From Chloroflexia bacterium (GTDB lineage: Bacteria > Chloroflexota > Chloroflexia > QHBQ01 > JADMIH01), in NCBI GenBank assembly GCA_035274425.1, contig DATEOC010000031.1, positions 1,995-65,994 on the forward strand: DNA of 64,000 nt. Direction: 5' to 3'. The notes under the pieces are model-generated. The model did no database searches. It had not been told where the DNA came from and was given only the letters and a program-made list of their open reading frames with translations. Below, one piece after another: positions 6,120 to 57,448 of the stretch (positions are counted from its first letter, which is position 1; every line of letters starts with the position of its first letter). A program made the translations under genes and the position numbers.

Positions 6120-6129
6120 AGTTCCAAGT

Positions 6130-7073: not shown

Positions 7074-7127
7074 GAGTGTCTCCTGTATTGTTGGCCCTCG
7101 TGGGCGGGTCTATTATACCACACTCTT

Positions 7128-7220: not shown

Positions 7221-7590
7221 GGTAAGTTGCGGGGAGGGGCGGGACCTGCGGGCAGGGAGATAGACCTGATACCTGGCGGGTTGATGGCCGCGTGGGTAGC
7301 GCCCCTATCGTCGCAACTGGTTTGGGTTCTATGGCTGAGTGCGTAGTGGCGCTCAGGGTTATTAGCTTGTAAGGCTCTGTGGGTAAGCACAGAGGGGCTT
7401 CCATGTTCATGTGGAAGCTGTGGGATATCGTGATCCCAGGATAGGGGCACCAGCGGGTCCCTTGATAGACACCTCTGCTGCGTCACAGGGGTGGAGTATG
7501 CATCCTCTATATTAATTAATCCCCTTTCTATGCCTTTTTGGGACAGGTTTTGGGACCAATTTACCTATTTCCTAATTTTTCATTTTGTAG

Positions 7591-7619
7591 ATTGACAAAT
7601 CAAATATAGTATGATATAT
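7591..7619 (+). promoter_or_regulatory. Sigma70-like promoter candidate in an AT-rich spacer upstream of the 7757 operon
   Basis: TTGACA, 17 nt, tgaTATATT (TG-extended -10). Confidence 0.35.
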
Positions 7620-7756
7620 TATTTACAGCAGGTTCAATCCTCTTAGGAATGGCCTATCATTATAGCTTACTCGAACTGTCGTATCGTCCTAGCTATTGAG
7701 TATTCTTGCCCCTTTCTCCATATATCGAGAAGGTATTATTTCACCTCTAAACCTAT

Positions 7757-8551
7757 TTGAGAAGGTGGTATACGAGCATGAGCAAATTTAACCCTATTAT
7801 AGCGATGTTGCTGTTGCTACTCGTAGCAATAGCCCTCAGCATAACGCTGGGAATAGGTGCCTCACGCACGAACGTGGGGCAGGCTCCAGCATCGCCTGTC
7901 GTTGTAACGGCATCACCCACAGTTCCAACAGAGACTTCTGTTGTGGCTTCGCCCACCACGTTAGAGAGTACCCCGCCACCTCCGGTAGGTACTGTATCGA
8001 ATCCCCTCCCAACTACTGTGATAGGGACGAGCACGCCCTTGCCTTTACTGACCGCGACTGCTGAAGCTCTAATGACACGTATGGCCGAATATCCTCCAAT
8101 ACCAAATCTCACTCCGAACCCGCAGGAGCAAGAGCGAAGGGCTGAATTGGAGATGTTGCGGTCGTTGTACCATTTGCCTGGCACTATCACTGCGCAGGGA
8201 TCGAATACAACCCCCAGCGGCGCTTTCCAACTGAAGACGTATCGTATTGAGGAAATAGAACTGCCTGAGCCAGTCACTTTCACTGAGCTCACGATTGGCA
8301 ACATTACTGTTGACAGGGTTTGGCGTATCGTCATAACAGGAGGGCCATTTCATGTGGGGCAACAATCTCTAGTCCTATACATCGACGGCAAGCCCGTAGC
8401 GAGCGGTTACGTCAGTTCTGCCAGTGGCGATGGGGTCCAATTCATTCTGTTTGATGATGCGTTGTTGCAGGAAGGCGCTATGATAGGCGTCAGTTTGACG
8501 ATGGGCGTGCCCTTGGTCACCTTACCGGAAACACTCCACTTTCAGCCGTAA
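7757..8551 (+). CDS. Secreted hypothetical protein: N-terminal TM/signal, Pro/Thr-rich linker, C-terminal domain of unknown function
   Basis: Hydrophobic N-terminus (IIAMLLLLLVAIALSITLGIGA) followed by a P/T/S-rich stretch; 23-bp gap with RBS ggag before the next gene. Confidence 0.6.
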   Translation: MRRWYTSMSKFNPIIAMLLLLLVAIALSITLGIGASRTNVGQAPASPVVVTASPTVPTETSVVASPTTLESTPPPPVGTVSNPLPTTVIGTSTPLPLLTATAEALMTRMAEYPPIPNLTPNPQEQERRAELEMLRSLYHLPGTITAQGSNTTPSGAFQLKTYRIEEIELPEPVTFTELTIGNITVDRVWRIVITGGPFHVGQQSLVLYIDGKPVASGYVSSASGDGVQFILFDDALLQEGAMIGVSLTMGVPLVTLPETLHFQP

Positions 8552-8574
8552 TCATTTAATGGAGAAATAGAATA

Positions 8575-11500: not shown

Positions 11501-12000
11501 GGATATACGAGGATGTACCGTCGAGCAACACTTTCTATCCGTGGATTAACAGGTTGAGCATGCGTGGCATAATGGGCGGATACCCATGCGGGGGGACTGG
11601 GGAGCCATGCGGCTCAGGTAACAGGCCATATTTCCGCCCGTTTAACGAAGCTTCCAGAGGACACATTGCCAAGATAGTTTCGAACGCATGGGGATTTATC
11701 GATCAGGTATCTGGCCAGATATTTGAGGATGTGCCAGCGGACAGCACCTTTTATACATGGGTCCAGCGCCTCTATATGCATGGCGTAATGGGCGGATACC
11801 CATGCGGCAGTCCGGGGGAGCCGTGCGTCCTACCTAATAACAGGCCATATTTCCGCCCATACAACGCCACTACACGAGCTCAATCGTCGAAGATTATCTC
11901 TAACTCCTTCTTCCCGAATTGTAATCCGGTTTTACTGGATATACCTGAACCTGTGCCCACAGCCGAAATGGAAATGCCTATGCCTCTGCCTACGCCGTAA
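8575..12000 (+). CDS. Large secreted alpha/beta-hydrolase (lipase/esterase-like) with three C-terminal SLH cell-surface anchoring repeats
   Basis: Signal peptide; LLHGNHAPC (oxyanion HG) and nucleophile elbow GHSRGG; three repeats YFRxYN..R...AKII......F.D......IYEDVP...FY.W..RL...G.MGGYPCG matching S-layer homology domains. GC visibly lower than neighbours. Confidence 0.8.
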   Translation: MKKILSAFVLGWVVIFSLTTMQTNQVGVAAPLADEEQEASLFSVAQGVDERTDYGFTPPSLGFPVEARSIFWYPIGSGPFPLIVLLHGNHAPCVNLSTQETRSDWPCSHIGTGWTSLPSHEGYNYLASYLASFGYIVVSISSNGIIHLSDTSTDDNGARARAELIDYHIGLWDSYNNSSTAKPVDPIIQAGYFHNKINMTKIGLMGHSRGGEGAVQLAALTTRWHIKAVLAIAPTNNTRYYGTEFYLDPPALGVLLSYCDGDVHDLSGVRYYDDSRYTPDMNLTAEHSFLVMGANHNYYNLNWSDRVTLPAGSPTPTPVPGGYDDWEKFQRGFNDPYGFNDPYCGRSNGQRLSQDAQRYTAKVYARAFYRAYLEGDKSEFPLLVGNATPPAPAGTVRVSYNASALIDMRKDLNRLSEATDILYSDLGGVATGSGLAPYTMCGGNSSQHCMTPDATPTPPPGYLANYPVLYQPRLPHTSDTYTERFPITTPTGNPTPTPYPTARHGLSQLSVGWNSTTASYKNTIATPQGDVSRYEALQFRVGVNFKDTRNAAGVTQDFSVVLTDGQPTPKVASVRVGSLYTSRPNPLFYPPGSMSLGWPYAVPHSVLNTVRIPLTQFKTAVPNLDLDNIRSVEMKFNQTSSGALLFSDIAFANSYCVSPTPGPAPDCSDTDYTVRQSEVATPIVAATAQVLTDCGSCEVTINLPSGFTYRMYDRNFTSVIAGSNGTLGFRGNTNPVPTPGSSALPSSAFDYAILPHWANMYLINSTTGGIGCVGNQLDPNPCGIYTSTSGQAPNRVFNIRWHACQLDPGNSDAWEEALKGDFPCQTEGSDLVNFEVRLYEGRSQAEIIYGDLGDHGGKGAVIGVQKDTGSKYTLYWQGTNRLPDTVRWLTFTQPPCMPASCTTEFQDVSNLNGFRPQVSCLTCRGVLSGYGCGGPGEPCVCPTNNAYFRLYNNVTRGQAAKIIAVSAGFNEDPGSRIYEDVPSSNTFYPWINRLSMRGIMGGYPCGGTGEPCGSGNRPYFRPFNEASRGHIAKIVSNAWGFIDQVSGQIFEDVPADSTFYTWVQRLYMHGVMGGYPCGSPGEPCVLPNNRPYFRPYNATTRAQSSKIISNSFFPNCNPVLLDIPEPVPTAEMEMPMPLPTP

Positions 12001-13682: not shown

Positions 13683-15251
13683 TTAGGGCTGAAATGTATC
13701 GTCGTGCACTTCCCACCTGTCTATCTCGGTGAAGCGGACGTGCGGACCCTGGTAGGTGTAGGCATAGCCGGAAGTGTTGTAGAGGACGTATATCTTCCTG
13801 TCCGCGACGTTTGGATAGACCATGAGGCCGCCGTCGAAGTACTGCACGGGGCTGCCGCCTGTGCCATCCTTATTTAGCTGTATGGTCTCGGCGGGCGAGG
13901 TGGCATTGCCGAGGCGGGAGCGTGCGGAGGGGTTGGCCGCCAGCACGCTGGCGAAATTGCGCGGCAAACTGAAGGTGCCTGGAGGAGCTGTAGGTACGGG
14001 CCCAGGGGGAGTATTCGTGTCTACAGGTAGGAACGAAGCGCTCTGGGCTGTGCGGTCGTAGTAGAGGATGAATACGTCCTCATAGAAACGGCCCGAATAG
14101 AAGTCATAGTAAGTCACGCCAAGCATATATTGTTCATGCTCGAAACGCTGGCGGGTCACGGTAAGCCGGGTCTCTGCGGCCATCTGGCAGCCAAGCTGGA
14201 ACTTAACGATATTGTTTTCGTAGACCTTGCCGAAGCCTAGCATGGGATAGCCGAGGCCGCACCTGCCCGTCAGCGTCGGCGGTTTGCCCTGGTCTCTGTA
14301 GCGCCAGTCGTAGTAATGCTGCCCGATATTGCCCATCTGTACCTTGAACCCTGCCGGGGCCGAAGGGACGTAGGTGAGCACGCGGCGCTGGTAAGGCTGG
14401 ATGAGGACGGGAGTGCCAACTTTGCCTTCGATCTTGACGGAGGCCCAGTAGGCGTCAGCGATGGGGTATCCGGTTGCATAGAAGTAGGGATCGTTCAAAC
14501 GGGCGTTGACCTGCTGATTGTTGTCGCTCATGACTTGACCAGTGGCGTTGAGGAATGACCAGAAGACGTCGGGTATGTTGTGCTTCGTGGCGGCCTCATA
14601 GTAAGCGTTCTTGACGTTGTACGTGTCGTAGGTCATATAGGGAGCGCCTCCATGCACGAAGTCGAGCGCGCCTGTCCTGGAGACGAGGTTGATGACGACT
14701 TTACCGACTGCGTTCGCGTCGGTACGGGCAATAGCTCCGCGAAAGCTGGCATAGGTGGGCGCGCTTTGGTCGTCAACGTCGCTGGCGATGGGGATGTCGG
14801 CGGGCCAGCGCGTGATGAAATCATAGTCACCTACCTGCATTTTGCCGGTAATAAGCTCCGTAGTGAGGAGGCCGTTGGTGACAAAGAACTTATCGTTGCG
14901 GTTGCCGTTGGGGTTGTTGATTTCCATTCGGGACTTGTCGAAGTACTGCACCCGGTGGGTTCCACCGATGCCCTCGGCGTATTGCTCGTTAAGAGACGGG
15001 CTAATAGGCCCCGGCCCCCAGAAGTAGCTCCGCTTCACTTTGCTATTGAGGACGAGCCAGTCGGTGCGCCTCCAGACGCGTTCGAAGGCGGGATCGGCGA
15101 ATGGGTAGCCCTGGGCGCTCTGCCCATTGGGCGGTGTAGACATCTGTGCGGCTACTGTATATGGGTTGCCCACGCGCGCAAGGCCGCTAGCGAGCAGGGT
15201 AGTCAAGACGATGGTTGTTGATACTTTACTGACGAAATTGCGCCCGTTCAT
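13683..15251 (-). CDS. Secreted hypothetical protein (522 aa)
   Basis: Signal peptide MNGRNFVSKVSTTIVLTTLLASGLARVG...; long ORF with coding-like composition; no recognised catalytic motif. Confidence 0.65.
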   Translation of the reverse strand: MNGRNFVSKVSTTIVLTTLLASGLARVGNPYTVAAQMSTPPNGQSAQGYPFADPAFERVWRRTDWLVLNSKVKRSYFWGPGPISPSLNEQYAEGIGGTHRVQYFDKSRMEINNPNGNRNDKFFVTNGLLTTELITGKMQVGDYDFITRWPADIPIASDVDDQSAPTYASFRGAIARTDANAVGKVVINLVSRTGALDFVHGGAPYMTYDTYNVKNAYYEAATKHNIPDVFWSFLNATGQVMSDNNQQVNARLNDPYFYATGYPIADAYWASVKIEGKVGTPVLIQPYQRRVLTYVPSAPAGFKVQMGNIGQHYYDWRYRDQGKPPTLTGRCGLGYPMLGFGKVYENNIVKFQLGCQMAAETRLTVTRQRFEHEQYMLGVTYYDFYSGRFYEDVFILYYDRTAQSASFLPVDTNTPPGPVPTAPPGTFSLPRNFASVLAANPSARSRLGNATSPAETIQLNKDGTGGSPVQYFDGGLMVYPNVADRKIYVLYNTSGYAYTYQGPHVRFTEIDRWEVHDDTFQP

Positions 15252-15415: not shown

Positions 15416-17305
15416 ATGGGCCGGAAAGGATATATGAAGATGAGAAAGTGGCTACCGATCTTATTGGCTATCTGCCTGGTACTATCATTGGCGCAAGCTG
15501 GGGGAGAAGCTGGCGCTTCACCTTCTTTGCAGGATGATAGCAGGCACTTCCCGGAGACGGGGCAAACGGTAAAGGGTGCGTTTTTGCAGTACTGGGAGGA
15601 GCATGGAGGGTTGGCACAGCAAGGCTTACCCATTTCGGCGGAGATGCAGGAGCGGAGTGAGACAGACGGCAAGATGTACACGGTGCAGTACTTCGAGCGT
15701 GCGGTGTTTGAGCTGCACCCAGAGAACGAAGCTCCTCACGATGTGCTTCTCTCCCTGCTGGGGGTCTTCGAGTATAAGCGCAAGTACGGCGCGGGTGGAG
15801 CGCCCGATCAGCATGCAAGCGCCGACAGCCCGTTCTTATTCAAAGAGACGGGCAAGACGCTGGGAGGCAAGTTCAGGCGATATTGGGAGACGCACGGGGG
15901 ATTGCCCCAGCAAGGTTTCCCGATCTCCGATGAGTTTCAGGAGAGGAATGAGCTAGACGGCAAGATTTACACGGTGCAGTACTTCGAGCGGGCGGTGTTT
16001 GAGCTACACCCGGAGAATGCCGGTACAGAGTACGAGGTGTTACTGTCGCACCTGGGCAGGTTCCGGTACGATAGGCGGGGCGTACCTGCCGAAGCTACCA
16101 GGTGGTTGCGGGAGCACATGGTCCCTTTGAAGACGGCGGAACCTACCGACGACTTCAGCGATCTGATGCACCTGAAGCAATTCATCGGTGACGCACGGAT
16201 CGTCGGATTGGGGGAGGCAGCGCACGGCGGGCGGGAGTTCTTCACGATGAAGCACCGCCTCCTGAGGTTCCTGGTGAAGGAGATGGGTTTTACGCTCCTT
16301 GGGTTTGAGGACGGATGGGCGGAGTCGTTGAGCGCCAGCGATTACGTAGAGAGTGGCAAGGGTAGCGCCAAGAGCGCAGTGAATCGACTCCTCGCCTGGC
16401 CCTGGAAGGCGCAGGAAGTGGTTGACATGGTCGAATGGATGCGGGGTTATAACGAGGGCAGGGGAAGTGCTCCCGCGATCAGCTTCCAGGGGTTCGACAT
16501 GCAAGAGGCTAGCGGGGCGATGAACTTCGTGATTGCTTATCTGCAAACGGTAGACGCGCCGGCAGCAGAGCGAGCAATCGAGCGATACAAGTGCCTGGGC
16601 GCGGGGTTCGATTATCGCTCACTACCGCAGGATGTCAAAGCGCAGTGTCGTGCCGCATTGCAGCAAGTCCACGACGAGATGGCCGCGAACCGGGGGGCTT
16701 ACGAGGCAGCATCCTCCTCTCAGGCTTTTACCCAGGCCCAGTTCGGGGCGCGCGTGGTCTTGCAGACGGAAGAGCTATTCAGCACGCCAGACAATTTCGA
16801 CGTGCGGGACCACTATATGGCTGAGAACGTATCGTGGCTGCTGGAGCAACGCGGACCTAACGCTAAGGCTGTGGTGTGGGCGCACAATGGACACGTCGGC
16901 AATCTCCAGTATGCAGGGCACGATTATCCCAGTATGGGAATGCATTTGAGGCAGAAATACGGTGATGATTACAAGGTAATCGGCTTTGAGTTCAACGGAG
17001 GCTCCTTTAACGCCACATCGGGGCGGCTCCAGGTAAACACAGTTAAGGGAGCAACTGAAGGGAGCTACGGGCAATACTTCCACAGCGCTGGTATACCTTT
17101 GTTCTTCCTCGACCTGCGTGGTGTCAGGGCTGCTGGAGGGTCTGGCGAAACAGATTGGCTGGTAGGCCCCAGGAGGATATGGGATATAGGGCACCGTTTC
17201 CACCCAGGCGATCCCCTGGCCACTACAGCGGAGGTGAGCCTTCCCCAGGTATTTGATGGAGTTATCTTTGTAGACACGATAAGTGCGACGACTTTGCTGC
17301 CGTGA
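15416..17305 (+). CDS. Secreted erythromycin-esterase (Ere/ChaN) family protein with two N-terminal LGFP-like repeats
   Basis: Two ~70-aa repeats FPETG.T..G.F..YWE.HGGL.QQG.PIS.E.QER.E.DGK.YTVQYFERAVFELHPEN; then ARIVGLGEAAHGGREFFTMKHRLLRFLVKEMGFTLLGFEDGWAE, typical of erythromycin esterase. Confidence 0.75.
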   Translation: MGRKGYMKMRKWLPILLAICLVLSLAQAGGEAGASPSLQDDSRHFPETGQTVKGAFLQYWEEHGGLAQQGLPISAEMQERSETDGKMYTVQYFERAVFELHPENEAPHDVLLSLLGVFEYKRKYGAGGAPDQHASADSPFLFKETGKTLGGKFRRYWETHGGLPQQGFPISDEFQERNELDGKIYTVQYFERAVFELHPENAGTEYEVLLSHLGRFRYDRRGVPAEATRWLREHMVPLKTAEPTDDFSDLMHLKQFIGDARIVGLGEAAHGGREFFTMKHRLLRFLVKEMGFTLLGFEDGWAESLSASDYVESGKGSAKSAVNRLLAWPWKAQEVVDMVEWMRGYNEGRGSAPAISFQGFDMQEASGAMNFVIAYLQTVDAPAAERAIERYKCLGAGFDYRSLPQDVKAQCRAALQQVHDEMAANRGAYEAASSSQAFTQAQFGARVVLQTEELFSTPDNFDVRDHYMAENVSWLLEQRGPNAKAVVWAHNGHVGNLQYAGHDYPSMGMHLRQKYGDDYKVIGFEFNGGSFNATSGRLQVNTVKGATEGSYGQYFHSAGIPLFFLDLRGVRAAGGSGETDWLVGPRRIWDIGHRFHPGDPLATTAEVSLPQVFDGVIFVDTISATTLLP

Positions 17306-17381: not shown

Positions 17382-17410
17382 TTGACTATGCCCCCATGCG
17401 GTGGTATACT
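17382..17410 (+). promoter_or_regulatory. Sigma70-like promoter for the riboswitch-controlled operon
   Basis: TTGACT, 17 nt, TATACT, about 28 nt upstream of riboswitch P1. Confidence 0.45.
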
Positions 17411-17438
17411 CGCGGCATAGACAACTGAATATGTGTAC

Positions 17439-17639
17439 CACAGAGGTCGCCCGAAGCACGGAAGCGAGGGCGTCAATGGGGGAAGCCGGTGTAGTCCGGC
17501 GCTGTCCCGCAACTGTAGTCCGAAAACGAGTTGAAAGTTCAAGGTTCCAGGTTCAAGGAAGACCGTACTGCCGGTAACTTTGAACGTTGAACTTTGAACC
17601 TGAAACTAATCCCGGAGAGCCAGGATACCCACCTCTGTG
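17439..17639 (+). promoter_or_regulatory. Cobalamin (AdoCbl) riboswitch aptamer
   Basis: Core GGGAAGCCGGTGTAGTCCGGCGCTGTCCCGCAACTGTA; B12 box GAGCCAGGATACCCACC; P1 cacagaggt/acctctgtg. The variable peripheral stem holds a GTTCAAGG-repeat hairpin (17529-17607). Confidence 0.8.
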
Positions 17640-17792
17640 AGACTCCAACACCTTCGCGAGAAAGGGGGATAGGAGCGATGACGCAGGCATGCACCTTGCC
17701 GCGCATACCGCCTTAGGCCAGAAGGCAGTAAGCAGAGGGCAGTAGGCAGTAACGGGTCGTCGGGACGGGGAGCGAGGCTCCCAATTATGTCA

Positions 17793-17824
17793 CCCTTGTC
17801 GCAATGACAAGGGATTTTTGTTTT
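17793..17824 (+). terminator. Intrinsic terminator serving as the riboswitch expression platform
   Basis: cccttgtc gcaat gacaaggg then atttttgtttt; RBS aggagga then ATG 17891. Confidence 0.7.
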
Positions 17825-17890: not shown

Positions 17891-19009
17891 ATGAACACGA
17901 TAGGATGGAAGATTAGAAAAGCGGGTGCCGCATGGCTGGCGGCGTTGATGGTGTTTATTATGGCTGCGGGGGCGGTATCGGCTACGCCGGAGTTCCCGGA
18001 CGTTGCTAATGCCGCGCTCACGTGGATGAAGGGGCAGCAGCAGCCTGATGGGTCGTTCCCGGGCTTCGGGGCGGGGTCGTCGGTTGATGCGCTGCTCGCT
18101 TTCGTGTCGGCGCAGGATGATAAAGAGGCGGGGCACGAGGACCTGCATATGTATACCGGGGAGGGGAGCAAGCTCATCACCTTCCTTGAGAGCAAGGTCG
18201 GCGACCTGACAAAGACGCCGGGCGGCGCGGGCAAACTGCTCGTCGCAGTGGCGGGGAACAGGATGGATGGGAAGGCGTTCGGCGGGGTAGACCTGATAGG
18301 CGTGATAAATGCCTCTTACGACGCGAAGACTGGGCAGTACGGCCAGGATGTAATCGGCCATGCCTTCGCCATCCTGGGTCTTGCGGCAGCGGGTGAGGAA
18401 GTGCCCCTTCTTGCGGCCAACTTTCTCGCCGATGCGCAGGGGCCGGAGGGTGGCTGGGCCTTCTCAGGAGACACCGCTCCTGGAGCGGCTGACACCAACA
18501 CTACGGCAGTCGCGTTGCAGGCGCTCCTCGCCATGCACGTTGGCACGAGCGACCCTACGATAGATAGAGCGGGGAAATGGTTGGCGGAGCAGCAGAATGA
18601 AGATGGGGGCTTCCCTTACCAGAAGGGAGGGGAGTTCGGCAGCGACAGCGATGTGAACTCGACAGCGTATGTGGCGCAGGCGTTTACTGCCCTGGGGATG
18701 TACGACGAAGCGGGGATGGCGAAGAGCTTCATCCGCTCTATGCAACTGGAGAGCGGCGCGTTCCAGTGGATGAAGTCGGAGCCGGGCGAGAACGCGGGTG
18801 CGACCTACCAGGCGATACCCGCGCTGCTGGACGCTACGCTGGTGGCTCCGGCTGGTGTGAGCAGAGAGGGGGGTGGAGTCGTGCCGGGTGGTATGCCGAC
18901 GACGGGGCAAGGTGCTATAGGAGTGGCTATAGCGCTATCCTTGCTCGCAACGCTGGCGCTGGGCGCAGGCATCTCCATGCGGAGAACAGCTTTCTCTTCG
19001 AGAAAGTAA
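17891..19009 (+). CDS. Secreted alpha/alpha-toroid (prenyltransferase / squalene-cyclase-like repeat) protein with C-terminal TM anchor; putative cobalamin-capturing alpha-domain protein
   Basis: Signal peptide; QW-type repeats QQQPDGSFPG, PEGGWAFSGD, QQNEDGGFPYQKGG, QLESGAFQW; C-terminal hydrophobic helix plus basic tail RRTAFSSRK. Confidence 0.7.
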   Translation: MNTIGWKIRKAGAAWLAALMVFIMAAGAVSATPEFPDVANAALTWMKGQQQPDGSFPGFGAGSSVDALLAFVSAQDDKEAGHEDLHMYTGEGSKLITFLESKVGDLTKTPGGAGKLLVAVAGNRMDGKAFGGVDLIGVINASYDAKTGQYGQDVIGHAFAILGLAAAGEEVPLLAANFLADAQGPEGGWAFSGDTAPGAADTNTTAVALQALLAMHVGTSDPTIDRAGKWLAEQQNEDGGFPYQKGGEFGSDSDVNSTAYVAQAFTALGMYDEAGMAKSFIRSMQLESGAFQWMKSEPGENAGATYQAIPALLDATLVAPAGVSREGGGVVPGGMPTTGQGAIGVAIALSLLATLALGAGISMRRTAFSSRK

Positions 19010-19023
19010 TAGACAATATTAAT

Positions 19024-19071
19024 TTGAGAAATCATCAAAATCACCTTCGGTGATTTTGATGATTTCTCAAA
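19024..19071 (+). other. Perfect 22-bp stem-loop between operon genes 1 and 2 (attenuator or mRNA-stability/processing hairpin)
   Basis: ttgagaaatcatcaaaatcacc ttcg ggtgattttgatgatttctcaa. Confidence 0.6.
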
Positions 19072-19116
19072 GATAGTTTTCAAGGGTTTTATCCCGGTAT
19101 CGTGCCGGGGGCGTTT

Positions 19117-20286
19117 ATGAAACGAATTGATCGAACATTCGCATATATTTTAGGGCTAATGGCGCTGGTCGCCCTGGGGGGCGGTGCACATCTGACCTCA
19201 GCGCAGGGTGCGCAGAGCAGGGCGGGACTTGTGGTGCAGTTCGGGGACGGGAGCGTGCGAAGCTACTGCATCGCGTTCGAGAGGGAGAGCATCACCGGCT
19301 TCGACCTGCTGCTCAAGTCGGGCCTGAATGTGACAGCCGAGGGATTCGGCGGCATGGGCGGGCTGGTGTGCAAAATCGAAGCAGAGGGGTGCGATTACCC
19401 GGGTGAGGCGTGCGTGTGCAAGTCGTATGGGCCGAACGGGGTCTACTGGAGCTACCACCACCTGCGTCAAGGGAAGTGGAAGACATCTTCGATGGGAGCG
19501 GGCGGCTACCGAGTCCGCAACGGCGAGGTAGACGGTTGGGCGTGGAGCGCGGGTAAGCCACCCGTTGTGAGAACATTCGACCAGTTGTGTGGGGCTGCGC
19601 AACCGAGGCCGACTAATACGCCCGTACCTCCCACAGCTACACCTCGCCCGCAGCCGTCCAACACGCCTAAGCCACCTACGGCTACAGCCACTCGGCAACC
19701 AGCCAGGCCGACCGGTACAGCTACGGCGCGGGCAGCTACCTCGACCCCTGTAGCGGCACGACCTACGAATACGAAAGAGCCACAGGTGGTCAGGCCATCC
19801 GCAACCAAGCAAGTAATCCGGCAGGTAACACCTACACGGCAGCCACCCCTTGTCATCGCAACCTCGACGCCGAAGAAGGGCATTACATCTACATCTACAT
19901 CGATGTATACACCTACCTCTGTCCCTACAAGACGTCCGACCCAGGTGGCACCAACACCTGTGCCCACAGAGGCCAGCCCAACACGAGTGGATGCGGTCAC
20001 TCCTACAGCGAGCGCGACACAGACGACAATACCACCCACCGGGACAAATACGCCTATACCGACGCCTACAGAAACCGCCATTCAAACCCAAACCAGCACT
20101 CCGGCTGCACCACTCGCCACGAATAGCCCAACCCAAACCCCGACCCCCGACCCTCAACCCCCATCTACAGATACCGCCCGCACTATCAGTATGGTTATCG
20201 GCGCTGCCGTCATTGGCGGACTGCTGGTGTGGGGAGGGGTGACGCTGGCGACGCGGCGAGTTGGTGGGAAGAGCAGGAGAAGCTAG
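19117..20286 (+). CDS. DUF4430-like (transcobalamin/intrinsic-factor beta-domain-like) surface protein: signal peptide, globular domain, long Pro/Thr linker, C-terminal TM anchor
   Basis: GFDLLLKSGLNV ... GGLVCKIEAEG ... YWSYHHLRQGKW ... GYRVRNGEVDGWAW fits the DUF4430 pattern; about 200 aa of P/T-rich linker; terminal TM plus RRVGGKSRRS. The start may be GTG 19102. Confidence 0.65.
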   Translation: MKRIDRTFAYILGLMALVALGGGAHLTSAQGAQSRAGLVVQFGDGSVRSYCIAFERESITGFDLLLKSGLNVTAEGFGGMGGLVCKIEAEGCDYPGEACVCKSYGPNGVYWSYHHLRQGKWKTSSMGAGGYRVRNGEVDGWAWSAGKPPVVRTFDQLCGAAQPRPTNTPVPPTATPRPQPSNTPKPPTATATRQPARPTGTATARAATSTPVAARPTNTKEPQVVRPSATKQVIRQVTPTRQPPLVIATSTPKKGITSTSTSMYTPTSVPTRRPTQVAPTPVPTEASPTRVDAVTPTASATQTTIPPTGTNTPIPTPTETAIQTQTSTPAAPLATNSPTQTPTPDPQPPSTDTARTISMVIGAAVIGGLLVWGGVTLATRRVGGKSRRS

Positions 20287-20287
20287 C

Positions 20288-21358
20288 GTGTGGGATGATG
20301 GCGTGGTGAGGTTCCACGTTGGGGCGTGGCTGCTGTGGCTCATGGCGGCTATGCTCGGCGCGCTCCTGACGCGCAATCCCATCTACCTCGCGCTGGTCAT
20401 AGCTGTGGCCTTGCTGGTAAATGCCCGGTTGAGTGGGAGTGCGGGGGATAATCAGGGAGATACGACGCGACGTGCGACCGCGGGCTTCATAAAGGTGGTG
20501 GTCGTGCTGACGGTGCTGGTTACCATCTTCAAGGGGTTGTGGATGAACAACGGCCAGACTGTGCTGTGGCGGCTCCCCGACTGGTGGCCCGACTTCGGGC
20601 GCGTTGCTACGTTGGAGGGCTTATTAGCCGCGGGGTTGGACGCGATGCAGATACTGGCTGTGCTGGCGACCTTCATGGCATTCAGCGCGGGGGTCGACTA
20701 TTACGCCCTTCTCCGTGCGACGCCACAATCTATGAGGCAAGTGGGGCTGGTGACATCTATTGCGCTCACATTTGTGCCTCAAACGGTAACGCGCTTCGGA
20801 GAGGTGCGTGAGGCGCAGGCCCTGCGCGGCCACAGGATCAGGCGGGTGGGGGACCTGGTGCCGCTGGTAGTGCCGCTCCTGGGTGGCGGCATAGAGCGCT
20901 CGATAGACCTCGCAGAGGCGATGGAGGCGAGGGGATTTAGTAGAGACCTGGCAGGGGGGCGGAGGATGCCGCCCATAGTTGTGCAGCTAGGAATAGCGGC
21001 GGGGCTGGCGCTTGTGCTGGCGGGAGGGACGCTGTTCGCATTCTGGCCCCCGGAGATGCATTGGGCCGATTGGGTGCTGATGTTCGCGGGACTGCTCCTT
21101 ATCGCGGGCACGCTGTGGAGCGTGGGGAGAGGAGCGAAGCGCACCCGCTACAGACATACAGTGTGGCGCGAGCGGGATACGGTGCTAGCAGCGATTTCGC
21201 TCGGTATCGTAGCGATATTAGGCACCTACAAGCTGCTGGAGCCTGCCGTGCTGGGGTACAACCCCTTCCCACGCGTAAGTATGCCCACTTTCGATGTTGT
21301 GCTCGGATTGGCACTGGTAGCACTCATCTCTCCTGTGCTCATTTTGGGGAGAGAATAA
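20288..21358 (+). CDS. ecfT: ECF transporter transmembrane (T) component (CbiQ family)
   Basis: Polytopic membrane protein with ALRGHRIRRVGDLV...AMEARGF signature; GTG start with RBS AGGAGA 8 nt upstream (the ORF tracker's TTG 20261 overlaps the upstream gene). Confidence 0.8.
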   Translation: MWDDGVVRFHVGAWLLWLMAAMLGALLTRNPIYLALVIAVALLVNARLSGSAGDNQGDTTRRATAGFIKVVVVLTVLVTIFKGLWMNNGQTVLWRLPDWWPDFGRVATLEGLLAAGLDAMQILAVLATFMAFSAGVDYYALLRATPQSMRQVGLVTSIALTFVPQTVTRFGEVREAQALRGHRIRRVGDLVPLVVPLLGGGIERSIDLAEAMEARGFSRDLAGGRRMPPIVVQLGIAAGLALVLAGGTLFAFWPPEMHWADWVLMFAGLLLIAGTLWSVGRGAKRTRYRHTVWRERDTVLAAISLGIVAILGTYKLLEPAVLGYNPFPRVSMPTFDVVLGLALVALISPVLILGRE

Positions 21359-21359: not shown

Positions 21360-21712
21360 GACGGAACCGCAAAGACGCCAAGAGCGCCAAGAAACCGCCA
21401 AGATTTTTAGGGTTATGTTCACCGCAGAGACGCTGAGAACGAGTCTAATAAGAATGTTGAAACAAGAGTACCTATGGATAACGAAGCACCCTTTTGCCTG
21501 TCACTCCGAACGAAGTGAGGAATCTCCAAGCTTGGACGTATGGATAAATTTCTAGATTCTTCGCTTCGCTCAGAATGACAGGCAAACTATTACAGTTCTT
21601 GCACATTTCTGAATGGCGCGAAGAATGATAGGCAGAAGCGGGTTGTTCTTACAAAGCTTCTGGGGTTTCATAGAAAGATCAGGCAATACGCACGCACCAC
21701 GAATTAAGCAAG
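21360..21712. repeat. 350-bp non-coding spacer inside the ECF operon carrying CGCCAAGA and TTCACCGCAGAGACGC modules and an imperfect ~95-bp inverted repeat
   Basis: acgccaagagcgccaagaaaccgccaagattttta (near-identical copy at 52443); gcctgtcactccgaacgaagtgaggaatc / gattcttcgcttcgctcagaatgacaggc. Confidence 0.45.
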
Positions 21713-23443
21713 ATGTCTAAGCCGATCATCTCCATCAACAATGTGACTTACCGCTACCCGGGCGGGGATGGGGCCGCGTTGCGTGATTTCTCGCTTGATG
21801 TTGAAGAGGGGGAGTTTCTGTTGGTGGCCGGGGTGTCGGGGGCGGGGAAGTCTACGTTGCTGAGATTGCTCAATGGGCTTGTGCCGCACTTCTATGGAGG
21901 TGAGGTGGCGGGAAGCGTTATGGTAGCGGGAAAGGACCCTGTGAAGTTGGGGCCTGGAGAGATGAGCGAGGTGGTCGGGCTGGTCTTCCAGGACCCGGAA
22001 GCGCAGATGGTGGCCGAGCGGGTAGAGGACGAGGTAGCGTTCGGCATGGAGAACGCGGGACTGCCTCTTGCCCTGATGCGCAAGCGAGTGGAGGAGAGCC
22101 TGCACGCCCTCAGCATCGAGCATCTGCGCGGGAGGAGGGTGAGCACGTTGTCTGGTGGAGAGAGGCAGCGCGTGGCTATCGCGTCGGTGCTGACGATGCA
22201 GCCTCGGGTGCTCGTGTTGGATGAGCCTACGTCACAGCTGGACCCACAATCAGCTGAGGAGGTGCTCGACAGCGTCGTGAGGCTGAACAAAGACCTGGGT
22301 CTGACGGTAATCATGTCGGAGCACCGGCTGGAGCGCGTTGTGCAGCACGTTGATCGCATCCTATACATGGCCCCCGGCGGCGAGACGGTGTTGGGAGAAC
22401 CCCGCGAGGTGCTATCGCAGATACCAATTGCCCCACCTCTAGTGCAGGTAGGTAAATTGCTAGGCTGGAGTCCCCTGCCGCTTAGCATCAAGGAGGCGAG
22501 AAGGTTTCTAGTAGGGGTCGGGGATCGGGGGTCGGTAATTACGAATTACGAATTACGAATTACGAATTGCGGGTTGCCGGAAGGTGAACAGGGCATGATA
22601 AATCATGCCCCTACAGAACGCTCTACCGACCCCCGGCCCCTGGCCCCCGACCCTCAATCCAAAATCGAGAATGTTTGGTTTGGGTATGGCGGGCGGGAGG
22701 TGCTACGCGATTTCAGCATGGAACTGCGGGCCGGGGAGATAACGGCGCTTATGGGGCGGAATGGGGTGGGAAAGACTACAATACTCAGGCTCATATTGGG
22801 ACTGTTGAAGCCCGCAAAGGGGAAGGTGGTTACGGAGGGATTGGATACGAGGCATACACCGTTGGAGGAGATGTCCAGGGTGGTAGGGTACGTGCCGCAG
22901 CAGCCTGACGTGTTGCTTTTTGCCGACACGGTAAGTGGAGAAATAGATTTTACGCGGCGGGCGCATAGATTGCCACCGGACGGCGCGGCCTTGCTGGAGA
23001 ACCTGGGGCTGACTCGATACCGCGAGCACGACCCCCGCGACCTGAGCGTGGGGGAGAGGCAGCGGGTGGCGCTGGCGGCGGTGCTGGCGGGGGAGCCTCG
23101 AATGCTCGTGCTGGACGAGCCTACACGTGGCCTTGATTACTTGCAGAAAGAGGCGCTCGCGGAGATACTGCGCGACTTACGCGACAAGGGGCGGACGATA
23201 GTGCTGGCGACCCACGACGTAGAGCTTGCGGCACAGATAGCTGACCGGGTTGTGCTGCTGGGAGATGGAGAGATAATAGCGGATGGTCCAGCCCGCGAGG
23301 TAATGTCAGGTACGCTCGCCTTCTCCACCCAGGTAAGTAAGCTCTTCCGCGATCCGAGGTTTGTGACGGTTGGGGACGTGGACGCTATTCACCGCAGAGA
23401 CGCAGAGAGCGCAGAGGTTTTTGGAGTGACGCATGATGCGTGA
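21713..23443 (+). CDS. Fused tandem ECF ATPase EcfA-EcfA' (two ABC domains in one 576-aa ORF)
   Basis: Walker A GVSGAGKST and GRNGVGKTT; signatures LSGGERQRV and LSVGERQRV. The ~50-aa inter-domain linker is encoded by an in-frame repeat hairpin element (22514-22670), and the second domain keeps its own RBS and ATG (22595). Confidence 0.85.
   Translation: MSKPIISINNVTYRYPGGDGAALRDFSLDVEEGEFLLVAGVSGAGKSTLLRLLNGLVPHFYGGEVAGSVMVAGKDPVKLGPGEMSEVVGLVFQDPEAQMVAERVEDEVAFGMENAGLPLALMRKRVEESLHALSIEHLRGRRVSTLSGGERQRVAIASVLTMQPRVLVLDEPTSQLDPQSAEEVLDSVVRLNKDLGLTVIMSEHRLERVVQHVDRILYMAPGGETVLGEPREVLSQIPIAPPLVQVGKLLGWSPLPLSIKEARRFLVGVGDRGSVITNYELRITNCGLPEGEQGMINHAPTERSTDPRPLAPDPQSKIENVWFGYGGREVLRDFSMELRAGEITALMGRNGVGKTTILRLILGLLKPAKGKVVTEGLDTRHTPLEEMSRVVGYVPQQPDVLLFADTVSGEIDFTRRAHRLPPDGAALLENLGLTRYREHDPRDLSVGERQRVALAAVLAGEPRMLVLDEPTRGLDYLQKEALAEILRDLRDKGRTIVLATHDVELAAQIADRVVLLGDGEIIADGPAREVMSGTLAFSTQVSKLFRDPRFVTVGDVDAIHRRDAESAEVFGVTHDA
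22514..22670. repeat. Repeat hairpin element lying in frame within the ecfA-ecfA' linker
   Basis: ggggtcggggatcgggggtcgg + (aattacg)4-5 + palindrome gggcatgataaatcatgccc + ccgacccccggcccctggcccccgaccc + ccaaaatc. Confidence 0.6.
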
Positions 23444-23565
23444 TGCGTGAGGCTTGAAACGCAAAGACGCAAAGGTGGCAAAGGGCAGGAAGATATTATG
23501 GTTGGATGCTAACAATGGATGTAGCGGTAGTAAATCCGAAATCCGAAATCCGAAATTCGAAATCG
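23388..23565. repeat. Composite module block spanning the ecfAA' C-terminus, spacer and ecfS N-terminus
   Basis: ttcaccgcagagacgcagagagcgcagagg; gtgacgcatgatgcgtgatgcgtgagg; gaaacgcaaagacgcaaaggtggcaaaggg; (aaatccg)3aaattcgaaatcg. Confidence 0.5.
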
Positions 23566-24405
23566 TCCAGGGCGATAAGCGCGGTGATTCTCGCGCTTAC
23601 AACGCTGCTTGGGATATGGGCGTTCGTTTACCCTTTCTTTATACCGCCTACCGCAGCTGGGGAAGCGCAGGCACATGCGTCGGATGCGCCCCTTATCTTT
23701 CTGCTGGTGATGGCGCTGTCGCTCGCGGCTATCGTTGCCGACCTGGAGACTCGGACGATGGACAGCAAGACCGTCGCGCTGCTGGGGGTGCTGGTGGCGA
23801 CTAATTCGCTGCTGAGGCCGTTGCAGGGGCCTGGGGGGTTCTCGGTATTCCTTGTGCTGCCGATGCTGTGCGGGTATGTCTTCGGGGGGCGATTCGGGTT
23901 CCTGATGGGGTCGCTGTCGGTGCTGGTGTCGGCCCTCTTCACGGGCGGGGTCGGGCCGTGGATGCCGTTCCAGATGCTGGCTATTGGGTGGGTGGGGTTG
24001 CTATCGGCAGCATTACCTCAGAAGATTATGTCAAGCATATGGGGAGGGAGAGCTGAGAAATGGGCACTTGCGGGGTGGGGCGTCGTGATGGGGTTGCTGC
24101 TTGGGGCGGTGCTGAACCTATGGTTCTGGCCCTATATCAGCCAGAACGCGGACCTGCCAGCCAGCCAGCTATGGCAGCCGGGGGCGGGGTTGATAGAGGC
24201 TCTGCAACGCTATGGTGCGTTCTATCTGGCAACCTCCCTCCCCTTCGACATCTGGCGTGCTGCCGGAAACGCTCTCTTCCTGTTGGTGCTGGGGCCGCCA
24301 GTGCTGAGGCTGCTCAGGAGGTATAAGCAGCGCTTTTTCTTCGTTGAGCTTGATAGATTTAATCACAAAGAACACAAAGACACGAAGAACACAAAGGATG
24401 ATTAG
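23506..24405 (+). CDS. ECF transporter substrate-specific (S) component candidate, putatively cobalamin-specific (CbrT-like role)
   Basis: Small ~6-TM membrane protein last in the ECF operon. The first 20 and last 15 codons are repeat-encoded, and the true start may be GTG 23583. Confidence 0.55.
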   Translation: MLTMDVAVVNPKSEIRNSKSSRAISAVILALTTLLGIWAFVYPFFIPPTAAGEAQAHASDAPLIFLLVMALSLAAIVADLETRTMDSKTVALLGVLVATNSLLRPLQGPGGFSVFLVLPMLCGYVFGGRFGFLMGSLSVLVSALFTGGVGPWMPFQMLAIGWVGLLSAALPQKIMSSIWGGRAEKWALAGWGVVMGLLLGAVLNLWFWPYISQNADLPASQLWQPGAGLIEALQRYGAFYLATSLPFDIWRAAGNALFLLVLGPPVLRLLRRYKQRFFFVELDRFNHKEHKDTKNTKDD

Positions 24406-24501
24406 GGTTTAATATCCGAGGAGCAATATCTGTATCCCCTATAATAAACCCATAATAATCTTTGTGGCCTTTGTGTCTTTGTGCTCTTTGTGATTAAATC
24501 T
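24355..24501. repeat. Near-perfect 43-bp inverted arms of CACAAAG heptamers around an AT-rich 60-bp loop; the left arm encodes the ecfS C-terminus
   Basis: agatttaatcacaaagaacacaaagacacgaagaacacaaagg ... ctttgtggcctttgtgtctttgtgctctttgtgattaaatct. Confidence 0.7.
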
Positions 24502-24508: not shown

Positions 24509-25642
24509 TCACTTCGCCAGCAGCCACTTCTCCATAGTGGTGCTGTCCACGACGCCGATGTGCACGTCGCGGATGATGCCCTCTTTGTCTATGAAGAAGG
24601 AGGTGGGGATGGGGAGGACGTGGTAGAGGCTGGTTGTGCGGCTGTCCACGTCTGGAAGGATAGGGAAAGTCATGCCGAACTCCTGGGCGAATGACTTGAT
24701 AGTCCGGTTGTCGCTCTGGGTGGCGATGCCAAGTATCTCGTAGCTCCCCTCTTTGTGGGTGGTTTTGTAGAGCTTCACGATGTCGGGTATCTCGGAGCGG
24801 CAGGGGGGGCACCACGTCGCCCAGAAGTTGATCATTACCGGGCGGCCTCGAAGCGCGCTCAACTGGACCTCGTTGCCATCTATATCTGTAAGGGTGAAGT
24901 CGGGAGCTTCGGAGCCGACGCGAGGGGCGGGACCGGAGCCGGCAGGCTTGAGGCGGTCTATGCGGGCCGACTGCGAGACCCGCGTTTGCCACTCGTTGGT
25001 GATAGCCCGCTTCTCGTCGGCGGTCTTGCCCGATATAGCGACGTTCTGGCTAATGTGCCTGCTTATGAGAAGCGCGTCGCGGAGGGAAGCACGCATGTCA
25101 GCGAGCGTGCAATTATACCTTGACAGCACGACAGAAAACTGCTCGGTGGAGAGTCTGAACTGGGAAGAAAAGGTAGCCAGCGCGTTCTCAATATCTGCCT
25201 CACTGATAACGACCCCGGCCTTCTCAGCGTCCTGCACCTGTACCAGTCTGCTGATGAGATTTTCCAGGGCGAGGGCAGCGGTAGGGGTAGTTACAGTAGC
25301 AGGTTTTCCCAAATCTTTGACGGCACGTTCGAGGTCCATTTCGCGGGTAATGTCGCGCTCGTAGATGTACTCTCCGTTGACGCGTGTCACCGCGTCCGAT
25401 GGGACCAGAGTATTGGGGTTGGAGAGCCATGCCCACAATATTATCGCCCCGAAGAGGAGAGCGGACGCGACTATGACCAGGGTAGTGCGTCTCCGGGCGC
25501 GAGCTTTCGCGGCGGCACGCGCAGGGGAAAGGGTGAGGGCAACACGCGGGGTTTGCCCCCCGTCATGGGCACGACCCCCGCTCGTTATCTCTACCTCGAA
25601 GCCGGGGTTGGGGGGCGCTTTGGTTATGTCGGTTTTGTTCAT
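24509..25642 (-). CDS. Membrane-anchored thiol-disulfide oxidoreductase: TM, SurA-N-like chaperone domain, TlpA/ResA thioredoxin domain
   Basis: INFWATWCPPCRSEIP (CxxC). Start chosen at ATG 25642 (MNKTDITK); the longer tracker ORF overlaps ccdA. ATGA overlap with the ccdA stop. Confidence 0.7.
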   Translation of the reverse strand: MNKTDITKAPPNPGFEVEITSGGRAHDGGQTPRVALTLSPARAAAKARARRRTTLVIVASALLFGAIILWAWLSNPNTLVPSDAVTRVNGEYIYERDITREMDLERAVKDLGKPATVTTPTAALALENLISRLVQVQDAEKAGVVISEADIENALATFSSQFRLSTEQFSVVLSRYNCTLADMRASLRDALLISRHISQNVAISGKTADEKRAITNEWQTRVSQSARIDRLKPAGSGPAPRVGSEAPDFTLTDIDGNEVQLSALRGRPVMINFWATWCPPCRSEIPDIVKLYKTTHKEGSYEILGIATQSDNRTIKSFAQEFGMTFPILPDVDSRTTSLYHVLPIPTSFFIDKEGIIRDVHIGVVDSTTMEKWLLAK

Positions 25643-26451
25643 ATTGGGAGGATAGAGGGACGGCCAACCTCGATATTTATTGGAGGGGTGATGGTGCTCA
25701 AGAAGCCCAGGGCATCGGTGAGGACGAGTATGCCCATGAGTATCAGCACGAGGCCGCTGATCAGTGAAATGATGTTGACCTCCCTGATGACCTGCCAGTT
25801 GCCAATTTTGAGCGAGTAGCCACGCCTGGTTATTCTCTTGAGACCTGACGATATCTGTCCGAGCGCGAGCGCCGCCAGCAGGAAGGGCAATCCGAAGCCG
25901 AGCGAGTAGATAAGGAAGGGTATGAACGCCCCTCCTGGGTCGTCCCGCGCCAGGGTGAATATCAACCCAAGCTGGATGCTCGTGCAGGGGGTCCAACCGA
26001 CGGCGAACCCTACGCCGATGATGAAAGAGCGTAGATAACCGAGGTTCTGAGAGGGGCGCAGGTCGAGGCGCTTGGTGTAGTCGAGGAAGCCTATCCTGAT
26101 AAGGCCAACGGAGTGCATACCGAAGATGATAAGCATGATGCCCATGACCCGGTTTATGAGGTCTCTGTTTTTGAAGAAGAACTCGGTCAGGAAGCTTGCC
26201 AGGCCACCGAAGACCGCGCCGAATATGAAGGTGAAGCCGAGCATGAACATGAGGGCGTGGCCCAGCACTATCCAGCGGGCAGCGGAGGTAGACATAGTGG
26301 CGGTGCCGCCCTGCGCGGATGCGGCCCTGGCCGCCATGACTGCGGGGCCGCTCAGGTAGCCCAGGTAGACGGGCACGAGGGGGAATACGCAGGGGGAGAG
26401 AAAGGAGAGGAGACCTGCCAGGAATGATAGAAAGAGATCTGGTGAGTTCAT
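25639..26451 (-). CDS. ccdA: Cytochrome c-type biogenesis / thiol-disulfide transfer membrane protein CcdA (DsbD family)
   Basis: FLSPCVFPLVPVYLGYLSG motif; 6 TM. Confidence 0.85.
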   Translation of the reverse strand: MNSPDLFLSFLAGLLSFLSPCVFPLVPVYLGYLSGPAVMAARAASAQGGTATMSTSAARWIVLGHALMFMLGFTFIFGAVFGGLASFLTEFFFKNRDLINRVMGIMLIIFGMHSVGLIRIGFLDYTKRLDLRPSQNLGYLRSFIIGVGFAVGWTPCTSIQLGLIFTLARDDPGGAFIPFLIYSLGFGLPFLLAALALGQISSGLKRITRRGYSLKIGNWQVIREVNIISLISGLVLILMGILVLTDALGFLSTITPPINIEVGRPSILPI

Positions 26452-26498
26452 ATATGAATATCCACTCTTGGTCTATTTGAGCTACTAGAAGTTATCGC

Positions 26499-27413
26499 CT
26501 ACTGGCTGGGAGCTGCGGGCATTCGCCTGCTGGCCGCTACCGACTGCCGGTAGGCTATCTGCACCGCTTCCGACTCGGCGACTACGCGGGCCATGCGCGG
26601 GAAGGCGAACCAGGCCACGCCCAGGGCTGCCAGGCCACCCGTGATTATCCGCAGCCACCAGTTGAGCGAGAAAGCTTGCGAGCCGATGTAGAAGGAGCCG
26701 AAGGAGGTGTCCATATCCATCGAGAGCATGTCGCGCAGGCCGAACATGTGGGTCACGCCGTCGAGAAACATCGGCACGAGAAGGAGGACGAACCAGTACC
26801 AGTGCAGAGGCCTGCGCAGCCAACGCAGCCACGACACGTTGCGATCACGGGCGACGGCAAAGAGGATGCCGAAGATGAGCACGCCTGCATAGATGGCGGT
26901 GTTGCGGTAGCAGAAGGCAACCTGGTAGCCGAATATGAAGCCTGCACGCTCCGGCAGCTGGTGGCAGGTAAGCGCGTAAGCCGTGTATATGGGGTTGGCG
27001 AGGTCCCACCAGCCGAGCGCCGCGAAAACAGGCGCGAGCCAGGGCAGACCTACGAAGATGCCCAACGCTATGCAGATGAAACGCAACCAGTGGTGACTTA
27101 TGTAGTCAAGCACACGGTCCAACTTCGTTTCCTGGTAGACGACGACACGTCTAGGCGGAGCGCCCCCGCGCTCAACCATGCCCAGATAGCCGCGTAATTC
27201 TGCCTCGTCTATTGGCGCGAATAGCCATCCGTACTTGCCGTCCCCGGCCACGATGACAGGTATCCTGTCATGATACGCCTTCTCTAGCTCAGGGTCGTCC
27301 AGGATATTGACCTCACGTACGCTGAGATCATACTCCGGGGCGATCCGGTCGAGGAGGGCCAGTACCTCTTCACAGAGATGGCATTCCGGTTTGCTGTAGA
27401 CGGTAATCTGCAT
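26499..27413 (-). CDS. Glutaredoxin-like domain fused to a DUF2085-type polytopic membrane domain
   Basis: N-terminal MQITVYSKPECHLCEEV...DDPELEKAYHDRIPVI (Grx2-like CxxC); membrane part with conserved LTCHQLPERAGF and AFCYRNTAIY Cys motifs. Confidence 0.65.
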   Translation of the reverse strand: MQITVYSKPECHLCEEVLALLDRIAPEYDLSVREVNILDDPELEKAYHDRIPVIVAGDGKYGWLFAPIDEAELRGYLGMVERGGAPPRRVVVYQETKLDRVLDYISHHWLRFICIALGIFVGLPWLAPVFAALGWWDLANPIYTAYALTCHQLPERAGFIFGYQVAFCYRNTAIYAGVLIFGILFAVARDRNVSWLRWLRRPLHWYWFVLLLVPMFLDGVTHMFGLRDMLSMDMDTSFGSFYIGSQAFSLNWWLRIITGGLAALGVAWFAFPRMARVVAESEAVQIAYRQSVAASRRMPAAPSQ

Positions 27414-57446: not shown

Positions 57447-57448
57447 CG

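Follow-up and report, generated by a model that had tools for sequence, protein, structure and literature searches.

A cobalamin riboswitch operon of a Chloroflexia bacterium encodes a putative split transcobalamin-like module for corrinoid capture upstream of an ECF transporter

We analyzed a 64,000-nucleotide stretch of DNA from a Chloroflexia bacterium (contig DATEOC010000031.1), termed the window below, in which the region from 17.4 to 24.4 kb of the + strand forms one operon consisting of a riboswitch leader and five genes. The first two genes encode surface proteins with the folds of the two transcobalamin domains, and the other three encode an energy-coupling factor (ECF) transporter. 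We conclude that this operon probably serves the vitamin B12-repressed capture and import of corrinoids (cobalamin, possibly cobinamide) in this monoderm Chloroflexia bacterium. A split transcobalamin-like B12-capture module had been proposed in an initial annotation of the window, and this proposal is supported here by the folds, a riboswitch survey of related loci, domain fusions, and an S component related to CbrT.

The leader starts with a sigma-70-like promoter site (17382 to 17410, + strand; TTGACT, a TG-containing 17-nt spacer, and TATACT), which was recognized by consensus match alone (10 of 12 positions) and is located directly 5′ of a cobalamin riboswitch aptamer on the same strand (17427 to 17650). 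This aptamer, which the initial annotation had placed immediately upstream of the two surface-protein genes, matched Rfam family RF00174 over the full model (positions 1 to 189) with 62.4 bits (E 4.7e-13), the gathering score of the family being 31.5. A terminator-like + strand hairpin with a T-run (17793 to 17823; 9-bp stem with 5 GC pairs, then ATTTTTGTTT) lies between aptamer and start codon and could be the expression platform, acting as an OFF-switch terminator. The operon is most likely repressed by vitamin B12 and expressed only when B12 is scarce.

The two surface-protein genes were found as open reading frames (ORFs) at 17891 to 19009 and 19102 to 20286 of the + strand, as annotated. 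Gene 1 (372 aa), whose ATG at 17891 has an AGGAGG Shine-Dalgarno sequence 5′ of it, starts with a hydrophobic, signal-peptide-like N-terminus (residues ~1 to 32), followed by a toroid domain (residues ~33 to 325), the motif MPTTG (residues 335 to 339; nucleotides 18893 to 18907), a hydrophobic segment (residues 338 to 364), and a basic tail. Pfam searches gave matches to SQHop_cyclase_C, Prenyltrans, and TED_complement, with 36.2 bits for PF13243 (cutoff 26.1) and 28.5 bits for PF00432 (cutoff 26.5), and four QW-type repeats of the form Q-x-x-x-G-(G)-W/F are present. The AlphaFold2 (AF2) model of the ectodomain, calculated with 46 sequences, is an all-helical alpha/alpha toroid with a mean predicted local distance difference test (pLDDT) score of 92, which agrees with the secreted alpha/alpha toroid of the initial annotation. 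When this model was used in a Foldseek search, class II terpene cyclases were closest and bovine transcobalamin (2bb6) appeared at rank 11 (E 1e-6) as the first family behind them, so that the suggested structural likeness to the transcobalamin alpha-domain was borne out. Animal B12 carriers were not reached in profile searches of PDB sequences with the gene 1 and gene 2 families.

The best sequence and fold matches of gene 1 were squalene-hopene and drimenyl-diphosphate cyclases, and the gene 1 family profile matched squalene-hopene cyclase (SHC) with E 7.9e-22 in the search of PDB sequences. These matches would suit an envelope enzyme (a terpenoid cyclase, a prenyltransferase, or a glycosidase-like protein) that is linked to B12 by regulation only and does not form a pair with gene 2, as would two loci of our survey, L025 and L027, in which the toroid gene stands alone behind the riboswitch. 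We consider such an enzyme highly unlikely. The catalytic motif DVDDTA of SHC aligns with DVNSTA in gene 1, where D225, N227, and S228 are invariant across the 46 sequences (a second motif reads DTNTTA), and the replacement of the DXDD acid by an invariant D-V-N-S indicates that gene 1 is not an active class II cyclase. Furthermore, the protein is predicted to be secreted and wall-anchored and would be remote from isoprenoid diphosphate substrates, it is fused to a beta domain of the B12-carrier type in 15 loci, and its identity to glycosidases is merely 8 to 11%. Class II terpene cyclases share with gene 1 a toroid with QW-type repeats, but they are two-domain (beta-gamma) proteins of ~600 aa facing the cytoplasm or the membrane, whereas the gene 1 protein has just one toroid (~290 aa), with a signal peptide on its N-terminal and a PxTG signal on its C-terminal side. 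An active terpene cyclase was therefore rejected on account of the lost DXDD motif. A thioester (TED) domain was also rejected, as the gene 1 protein does not contain any cysteine.

The initial annotation had assigned a C-terminal transmembrane (TM) anchor to gene 1. The hydrophobic segment was confirmed, but it is probably part of a sortase signal rather than a plain anchor. The C-terminus consists of MPTTG, 25 hydrophobic residues, and the sequence RRTAFSSRK, and P-x-T-G is nearly invariant among the 46 homologues. Pfam Gram_pos_anchor (PF00746) matches nine of these homologues, though not the window protein, and some are named "LPXTG-motif cell wall-anchored" by JGI. Taken together, these observations make a sortase sorting signal with attachment to the cell wall likelier than a TM anchor.

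Gene 2 is predicted to encode a secreted SCO2322-type beta-grasp protein of 394 aa; the ATG at 19117 may be an alternative start. A signal-like N-terminus (residues ~1 to 34) precedes a folded domain of ~130 aa (residues 35 to ~170; nucleotides 19204 to 19617; AF2 pLDDT 90), a Thr/Pro stalk (residues 173 to 355), and a hydrophobic segment (residues 358 to 384) followed by basic residues. The stalk comprises 183 aa with 25.7% Thr and 21.9% Pro, close to the ~200 aa given in the initial annotation, which had also recognized the C-terminal TM anchor. By its fold, the domain is a transcobalamin-clade beta-grasp (SLBB) domain. Its earlier description as DUF4430-like was correct with regard to the fold, but not with regard to a sequence match to Pfam DUF4430. 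According to the model, the likeness to DUF4430 and the transcobalamin beta domain holds at the fold level alone, and this fold-level support for a beta domain missed by sequence methods is an addition of the present work.

Pfam searches with a release that does not contain PF28005 returned nothing for gene 2 or its homologues, and searches of PDB sequences with the gene 2 domain, both as a single sequence and as a profile, found no relative. Homologues with 38 to 67% identity carry a precomputed PF28005 "SCO2322" assignment, and through these homologues the gene 2 domain can be placed, as a probable member, in this family. A broadened beta-domain profile search retrieved PF28005-type proteins alone and did not lead to DUF4430 or to named Actinobacteria. 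In the broadened alignment, two of the four cysteines in a Cys-rich loop of ~20 residues (C..GCDYP..CxC) are invariant and the other two nearly so. Many gene 2 homologues end with WPFG, a TM segment, and RR (alignment columns ~380 to 410), a motif that the window protein does not have. The gene 2 profile showed a weak match (E 0.58) to the PGF-CTERM tail of the Haloferax S-layer glycoprotein, and one homologue (P0188) carries Pfam PEP-CTERM; the WPFG tail may act in sorting of the exosortase/archaeosortase type.

The ECF transporter that had been annotated downstream was confirmed. It is encoded on the + strand by genes for the transmembrane component EcfT of the CbiQ family (20261 to 21358; PF02361, 30.8 bits, cutoff 25), a fused EcfA-EcfA′ ATPase with two ATP-binding cassette (ABC) domains (21713 to 23443; ABC_tran matched twice), and an S component (23506 to 24405; PF12822, 40.9 bits, E 2.8e-10, cutoff 30.7). 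The first 26 nt of EcfT are shared with the end of gene 2, which is read in a different frame. The ATPase scored above the cutoffs of both ECF ATPase equivalogs, TIGR04520 (373 bits, cutoff 315) and TIGR04521 (345 bits, cutoff 330), which identifies it as EcfA-A′. The presence of T, two ABC ATPase domains, and S in one operon corresponds to the dedicated (group I) ECF type. A single-sequence search of PDB with the S component found no relative. When a 17-sequence profile was used, the sole significant chain was 6fnp_A (E 2.3e-6, 30 bits, ~115 residues), with FolT at E 1.3. This 182-residue membrane chain of 6FNP is, to judge from its size, CbrT, and the S component appears to be a remote homologue of CbrT, which does not imply orthology.

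Cobalt uptake is commonly under B12 riboswitch control, and the operon might therefore encode an importer for cobalt or another metal, with the Cys-rich beta domain serving as an extracellular metal binder. The match of the T component to Pfam CbiQ, the four invariant or nearly invariant cysteines in the C..GC....CxC loop, and the deposition of the DUF4430 structure 3u7z as a "putative metal binding protein" are in line with this possibility. We nevertheless regard it as improbable, because CbiQ is the generic EcfT family, and the S component belongs to the general ECF S family PF12822 rather than to CbiM (E 0.039, below cutoff), its profile matching CbrT. In addition, a large toroid partner, which forms one protein with the beta domain in 15 loci, suits a large ligand better than an ion, and extracellular cysteines are likelier to be engaged in disulfide bonds. 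A CbiMNQO cobalt transporter was rejected, since the S component is not CbiM.

The transporter genes are interspersed with repeats. Short repeats are found between the operon genes at 21364 to 21441, 21493 to 21586, 23389 to 23483, and 24355 to 24501. They include the "ACCGCAAAGACGC.AAGAGCG" family, with four to five copies, and two long inverted repeats, whose arms measure 33 nt (21493/21554) and 61 nt (24355/24441). Such repeats fill the 354-nt interval that separates EcfT from the ATPase gene. Repeat-like DNA was also found in coding sequence. The linker between the ABC domains of the ATPase (22514 to 22653) contains a tandem AATTACG repeat flanked by an inverted repeat, and AAATCCG is tandemly repeated close to the 5′ end of the ORF for the S component (23532 to 23559). 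Either mobile repeats may have inserted in frame, or translation of the S component may in fact begin further downstream.

A survey with the gene 1 alignment as seed and one genome per species yielded 80 loci, 79 of which were scanned for a riboswitch; due to the choice of the seed, it is biased towards toroid-bearing loci. Nearly all 80 loci are titled Chloroflexota and represent Chloroflexia, Anaerolineae, Herpetosiphonaceae, Caldilineae, Ardenticatenia, Thermoflexia, and Dehalococcoidia. In 72 of these 79 loci, Rfam detected a cobalamin-type riboswitch upstream and in the same orientation, with a median distance of 265 nt between the end of the aptamer and the toroid match; four of the seven loci without a hit have less than 350 bp of upstream sequence. 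A separate gene 2 directly follows gene 1 in the same order in 62 of the 80 loci, so that the neighborhood expected by the initial annotation was recovered for both the riboswitch and the pair. ECF genes follow in most loci with enough sequence, in the order T-AA′-S or S-T-AA′. Genes for corrinoid salvage were found after the toroid gene in L038 (CobS and CobU) and L040 (CobS).

The survey also revealed gene fusions. Fifteen loci encode the beta domain and the toroid as one protein, the beta domain being attached directly on the N-terminal side; some of these proteins have two toroids, and one has a second beta domain. The N-terminus of one such fusion protein (L078:3497-5278) matched the gene 2 family with an hhalign probability of 99.5 (E 3.8e-23). 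In three independent metagenome-assembled genomes, a gene 2 homologue with beta domain, stalk, and TM helix is in frame with EcfT (L054:5053-6969, L058:4839-6674, and L079:4921-6906). As gene 2 and EcfT of the window overlap in different frames, a single insertion or deletion would switch between the unfused and the fused state. Through the two types of fusion, the beta domain is physically connected with both the toroid and the transporter. These sequence-derived fusions thus provide independent support for a physical partnership and are the best substitute for a modelled interface.

Several related loci deviate from the arrangement in the window. The riboswitch was also present in L001, L087, and L084. 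In L001, a relative at 61% identity, and likewise in L002 and L003, a Diphthami_syn_2 gene (ATP-binding, PP-loop type; L001:10293-11036), which is absent in the window, is inserted between gene 2 and EcfT. L087 harbors a seven-gene riboswitch operon (2064 to 10206) for DUF4430 and SCO2322-type proteins, each preceded by a toroid protein, and then ECF genes; the toroid protein in front of the DUF4430 protein contains Ig-like repeats. A nearby match to the mycobacterial-type small RNA ASdes suggests that L087 may be of actinobacterial origin. In L084, a divergent, solitary SCO2322-type protein of 183 aa (5698 to 6552) is encoded right after a cobalamin riboswitch, and neither a toroid gene nor an ECF gene lies within 6 kb of it.

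Based on these results, we propose that at low intracellular concentrations of coenzyme B12 the riboswitch would permit transcription past the leader terminator. The gene 1 protein would be exported and its PxTG signal processed, giving a catalytically dead toroid of the terpene-cyclase type on or in the cell wall, and the gene 2 protein would be exported and held in the membrane by its C-terminal helix, from which a flexible Thr/Pro tether of ~180 residues would lead to the transcobalamin-beta-type domain. Toroid and beta domain would then enclose one corrinoid in the way of the two domains of transcobalamin, and the tethered beta domain would pass the ligand on to the CbrT-like S component of the ECF transporter, which would import it at the expense of ATP. 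In this scheme, corrinoid binding, heterodimer formation, and ligand transfer to the S component are inferred, whereas the domain fusions, the operon and its conservation, the riboswitch, the folds, and the signals for export and anchoring are observations.

In favor of corrinoid capture we count the riboswitch in the window and in the surveyed loci, the salvage neighbors CobS and CobU together with the CbrT-type match of the S component, the loss of catalysis in combination with the conserved gene order and the fusions, and the prediction of the same architecture in 2007 (PMC1796856). A number of results speak against it. PF01122 (Cobalamin_bind) did not match gene 1 at E ≤ 0.1 in the Pfam search, and only one of its 46 homologues was matched (E 0.035). 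PF14478 (DUF4430) did not match gene 2 at E ≤ 0.1 and matched none of 28 homologues. The S component is related to CbrT only remotely (30 bits). The toroid occurs without any beta domain in 11 loci, the pair is followed in 6 loci by 2.5 kb or more of sequence devoid of ECF genes, and the operon in L085 has no detectable riboswitch. Finally, the sole genetically studied system with split alpha and beta proteins and an ECF transporter, that of Lactobacillus sakei, was reported for heme (10.1101/864751).

This last point raises the question of whether another tetrapyrrole, such as heme, is captured and imported instead of B12. The lsa1836-1840 operon of L. sakei has the same parts, and its deletion impaired heme uptake (10.1101/864751). 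That assignment is derived from deletion of the whole operon and docking, not from binding assays. Evidence against such a ligand in the Chloroflexota loci comes from the cobalamin riboswitch in front of 72 of 79, the neighbors CobS and CobU in L038 and CobS in L040, and an S component whose closest solved relative is CbrT. We therefore give heme or a similar ligand very little probability and hold to corrinoids as the probable substrates.

A more specific version of corrinoid capture, to which we give slightly less than an even chance, is a receptor relay in which the wall-bound toroid and the tethered beta domain catch corrinoids beyond the thick wall and pass them to the S component. By definition, an ECF transporter is an ABC importer that operates without any extracytoplasmic binding protein, and such a relay would be an exception. 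If it exists, the gene 2-EcfT fusions would mark the docking site, and the system would represent a prokaryotic ancestor-type of the transcobalamin sandwich, functioning as a relay and not as a soluble carrier. The acquisition of B12 by Gram-positive-type bacteria at environmental (picomolar) levels is poorly understood, and the Chloroflexota family is a well-defined candidate for a surface module that would capture the vitamin and supply it to an ECF importer. It also has a bearing on the origin of the animal B12 carriers.

The operon is directly followed by three genes for extracytoplasmic thiol-redox proteins on the - strand (24509 to 27413), coding for a SurA_N protein with AhpC/TSA/Redoxin (24509 to 25996), a DsbD_TM-like protein (25639 to 26451), and a Glrx-like protein with DUF2085 (26499 to 27413). 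The same trio follows the operon in L001, and it may be linked to the secreted beta domain with its six cysteines or be a coincidence. Immediately upstream of the operon lies a gene for a secreted protein of the erythromycin-esterase family (15416 to 17305; esterase domain at residues 287 to 621), which contains two similar stretches in its N-terminal region before the esterase domain, and on the opposite strand to it a gene for a secreted protein of 522 aa without a Pfam match (13683 to 15251). Neither of the two appears to be part of the operon. An SLH-domain protein of 1141 aa (8575 to 12000) is consistent with a wall-associated surface layer, and a division and cell-wall cluster with FtsZ, FtsA, and Mur ligases is located at the far end of the window (46623 to 63977). 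Among 20 other ORFs of the window that were scanned, no B12 biosynthesis genes or B12-dependent enzymes were found.

Among known systems, the animal B12 carriers transcobalamin, intrinsic factor, and haptocorrin (2BB6, 2PMV, 4KKJ) combine, like genes 1 and 2, a toroid with a small beta-grasp (SLBB) domain, and they are extracellular, as the two proteins of the window are predicted to be. The carriers have both domains in one chain, alpha then beta, whereas the window encodes two surface-anchored polypeptides and the fused bacterial relatives show the reverse order, beta then alpha. In contrast to the carriers, the window proteins fall outside PF01122 and PF14478, gene 2 has the Cys-rich loop, and gene 1 has repeats of the terpene-cyclase type (Q-x-x-x-G-G-W/F).

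Functional analogues of the two proteins are BtuG and BtuH of Bacteroides. These have an unrelated fold, are anchored in the outer membrane, and deliver to the TonB-dependent transporter BtuB. They are surface lipoproteins for corrinoid capture, encoded in riboswitch-controlled B12 transport loci (PMC6143338). On the side of the transporter, ECF-CbrT of Lactobacillus delbrueckii (6FNP) transports cobalamin and cobinamide (PMC5997447). CbrT works without an extracellular accessory protein, has ~182 aa compared to 299 aa of the S component in the window, and uses a shared (group II) ECF module, whereas the window operon contains genes 1 and 2 and its own dedicated module with a fused ATPase. Accessory proteins of this kind are not mentioned in the ECF-CbrT paper (PMC5997447) or in a review on riboswitches of Clostridioides difficile.

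At the level of families, gene 1 matched SCO2321_fam (NF053823; E 1.3e-18, score 67.1, cutoff 300) and gene 2 SCO2322_fam (NF040672; E 6.7e-6, score 26.5, cutoff 85). Both scores fall well short of the curated cutoffs, which makes the window proteins relatives of the two families rather than members. Both family names carry no function, and the gene numbering suggests that SCO2321 and SCO2322 are neighbors in Streptomyces, too. A literature search for SCO2321, SCO2322, and SCO2323 returned one unrelated paper only. We found no relevant literature joining ECF/CbrT, riboswitch, and prenyltransferase, and no report of corrinoid binding for any bacterial member, most subscription journals being outside the coverage of the search.

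The statement of the initial annotation that no experimentally characterized system of this kind was known went too far, because the concept has been published (PMC1796856) and the L. sakei operon has been studied genetically (10.1101/864751). The latter encodes an S component, a fused A-A′ ATPase, a T component, and beta-like and alpha-like proteins (Verplaetse et al., 10.1101/864751). It was reported as a heme importer with no mention of a B12 riboswitch, its accessory genes come last rather than first, and its accessory proteins showed homology to transcobalamin by HHpred, whereas gene 2 is recognizable by its fold alone.

The concept itself goes back to Burroughs, Balaji, Iyer, and Aravind, who in 2007 defined a bacterial transcobalamin-like SLBB clade and proposed that it scavenges B12 and that the animal B12 carriers are of bacterial origin (PMC1796856). 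Members of this clade were described to have signal peptides, Gram-positive anchors, fusions with alpha/alpha toroids in either order, second paralogous SLBB proteins, and operons with CbiO/CbiQ (PMC1796856). The window shares with this set the predicted signal peptides and putative Gram-positive-type anchors, a toroid fused or adjacent to SLBB, and the ECF-type ATPase and T component. The gain of the present work is thus quantitative support for a published concept rather than a new one. Whereas the 2007 set comprised chiefly Firmicutes, archaea, and DUF4430-type domains, and the word riboswitch does not occur in that text, the Chloroflexota family has a divergent SCO2322-type beta domain, and our additions are its near-universal link to the cobalamin riboswitch and the beta-toroid and gene 2-EcfT fusions.

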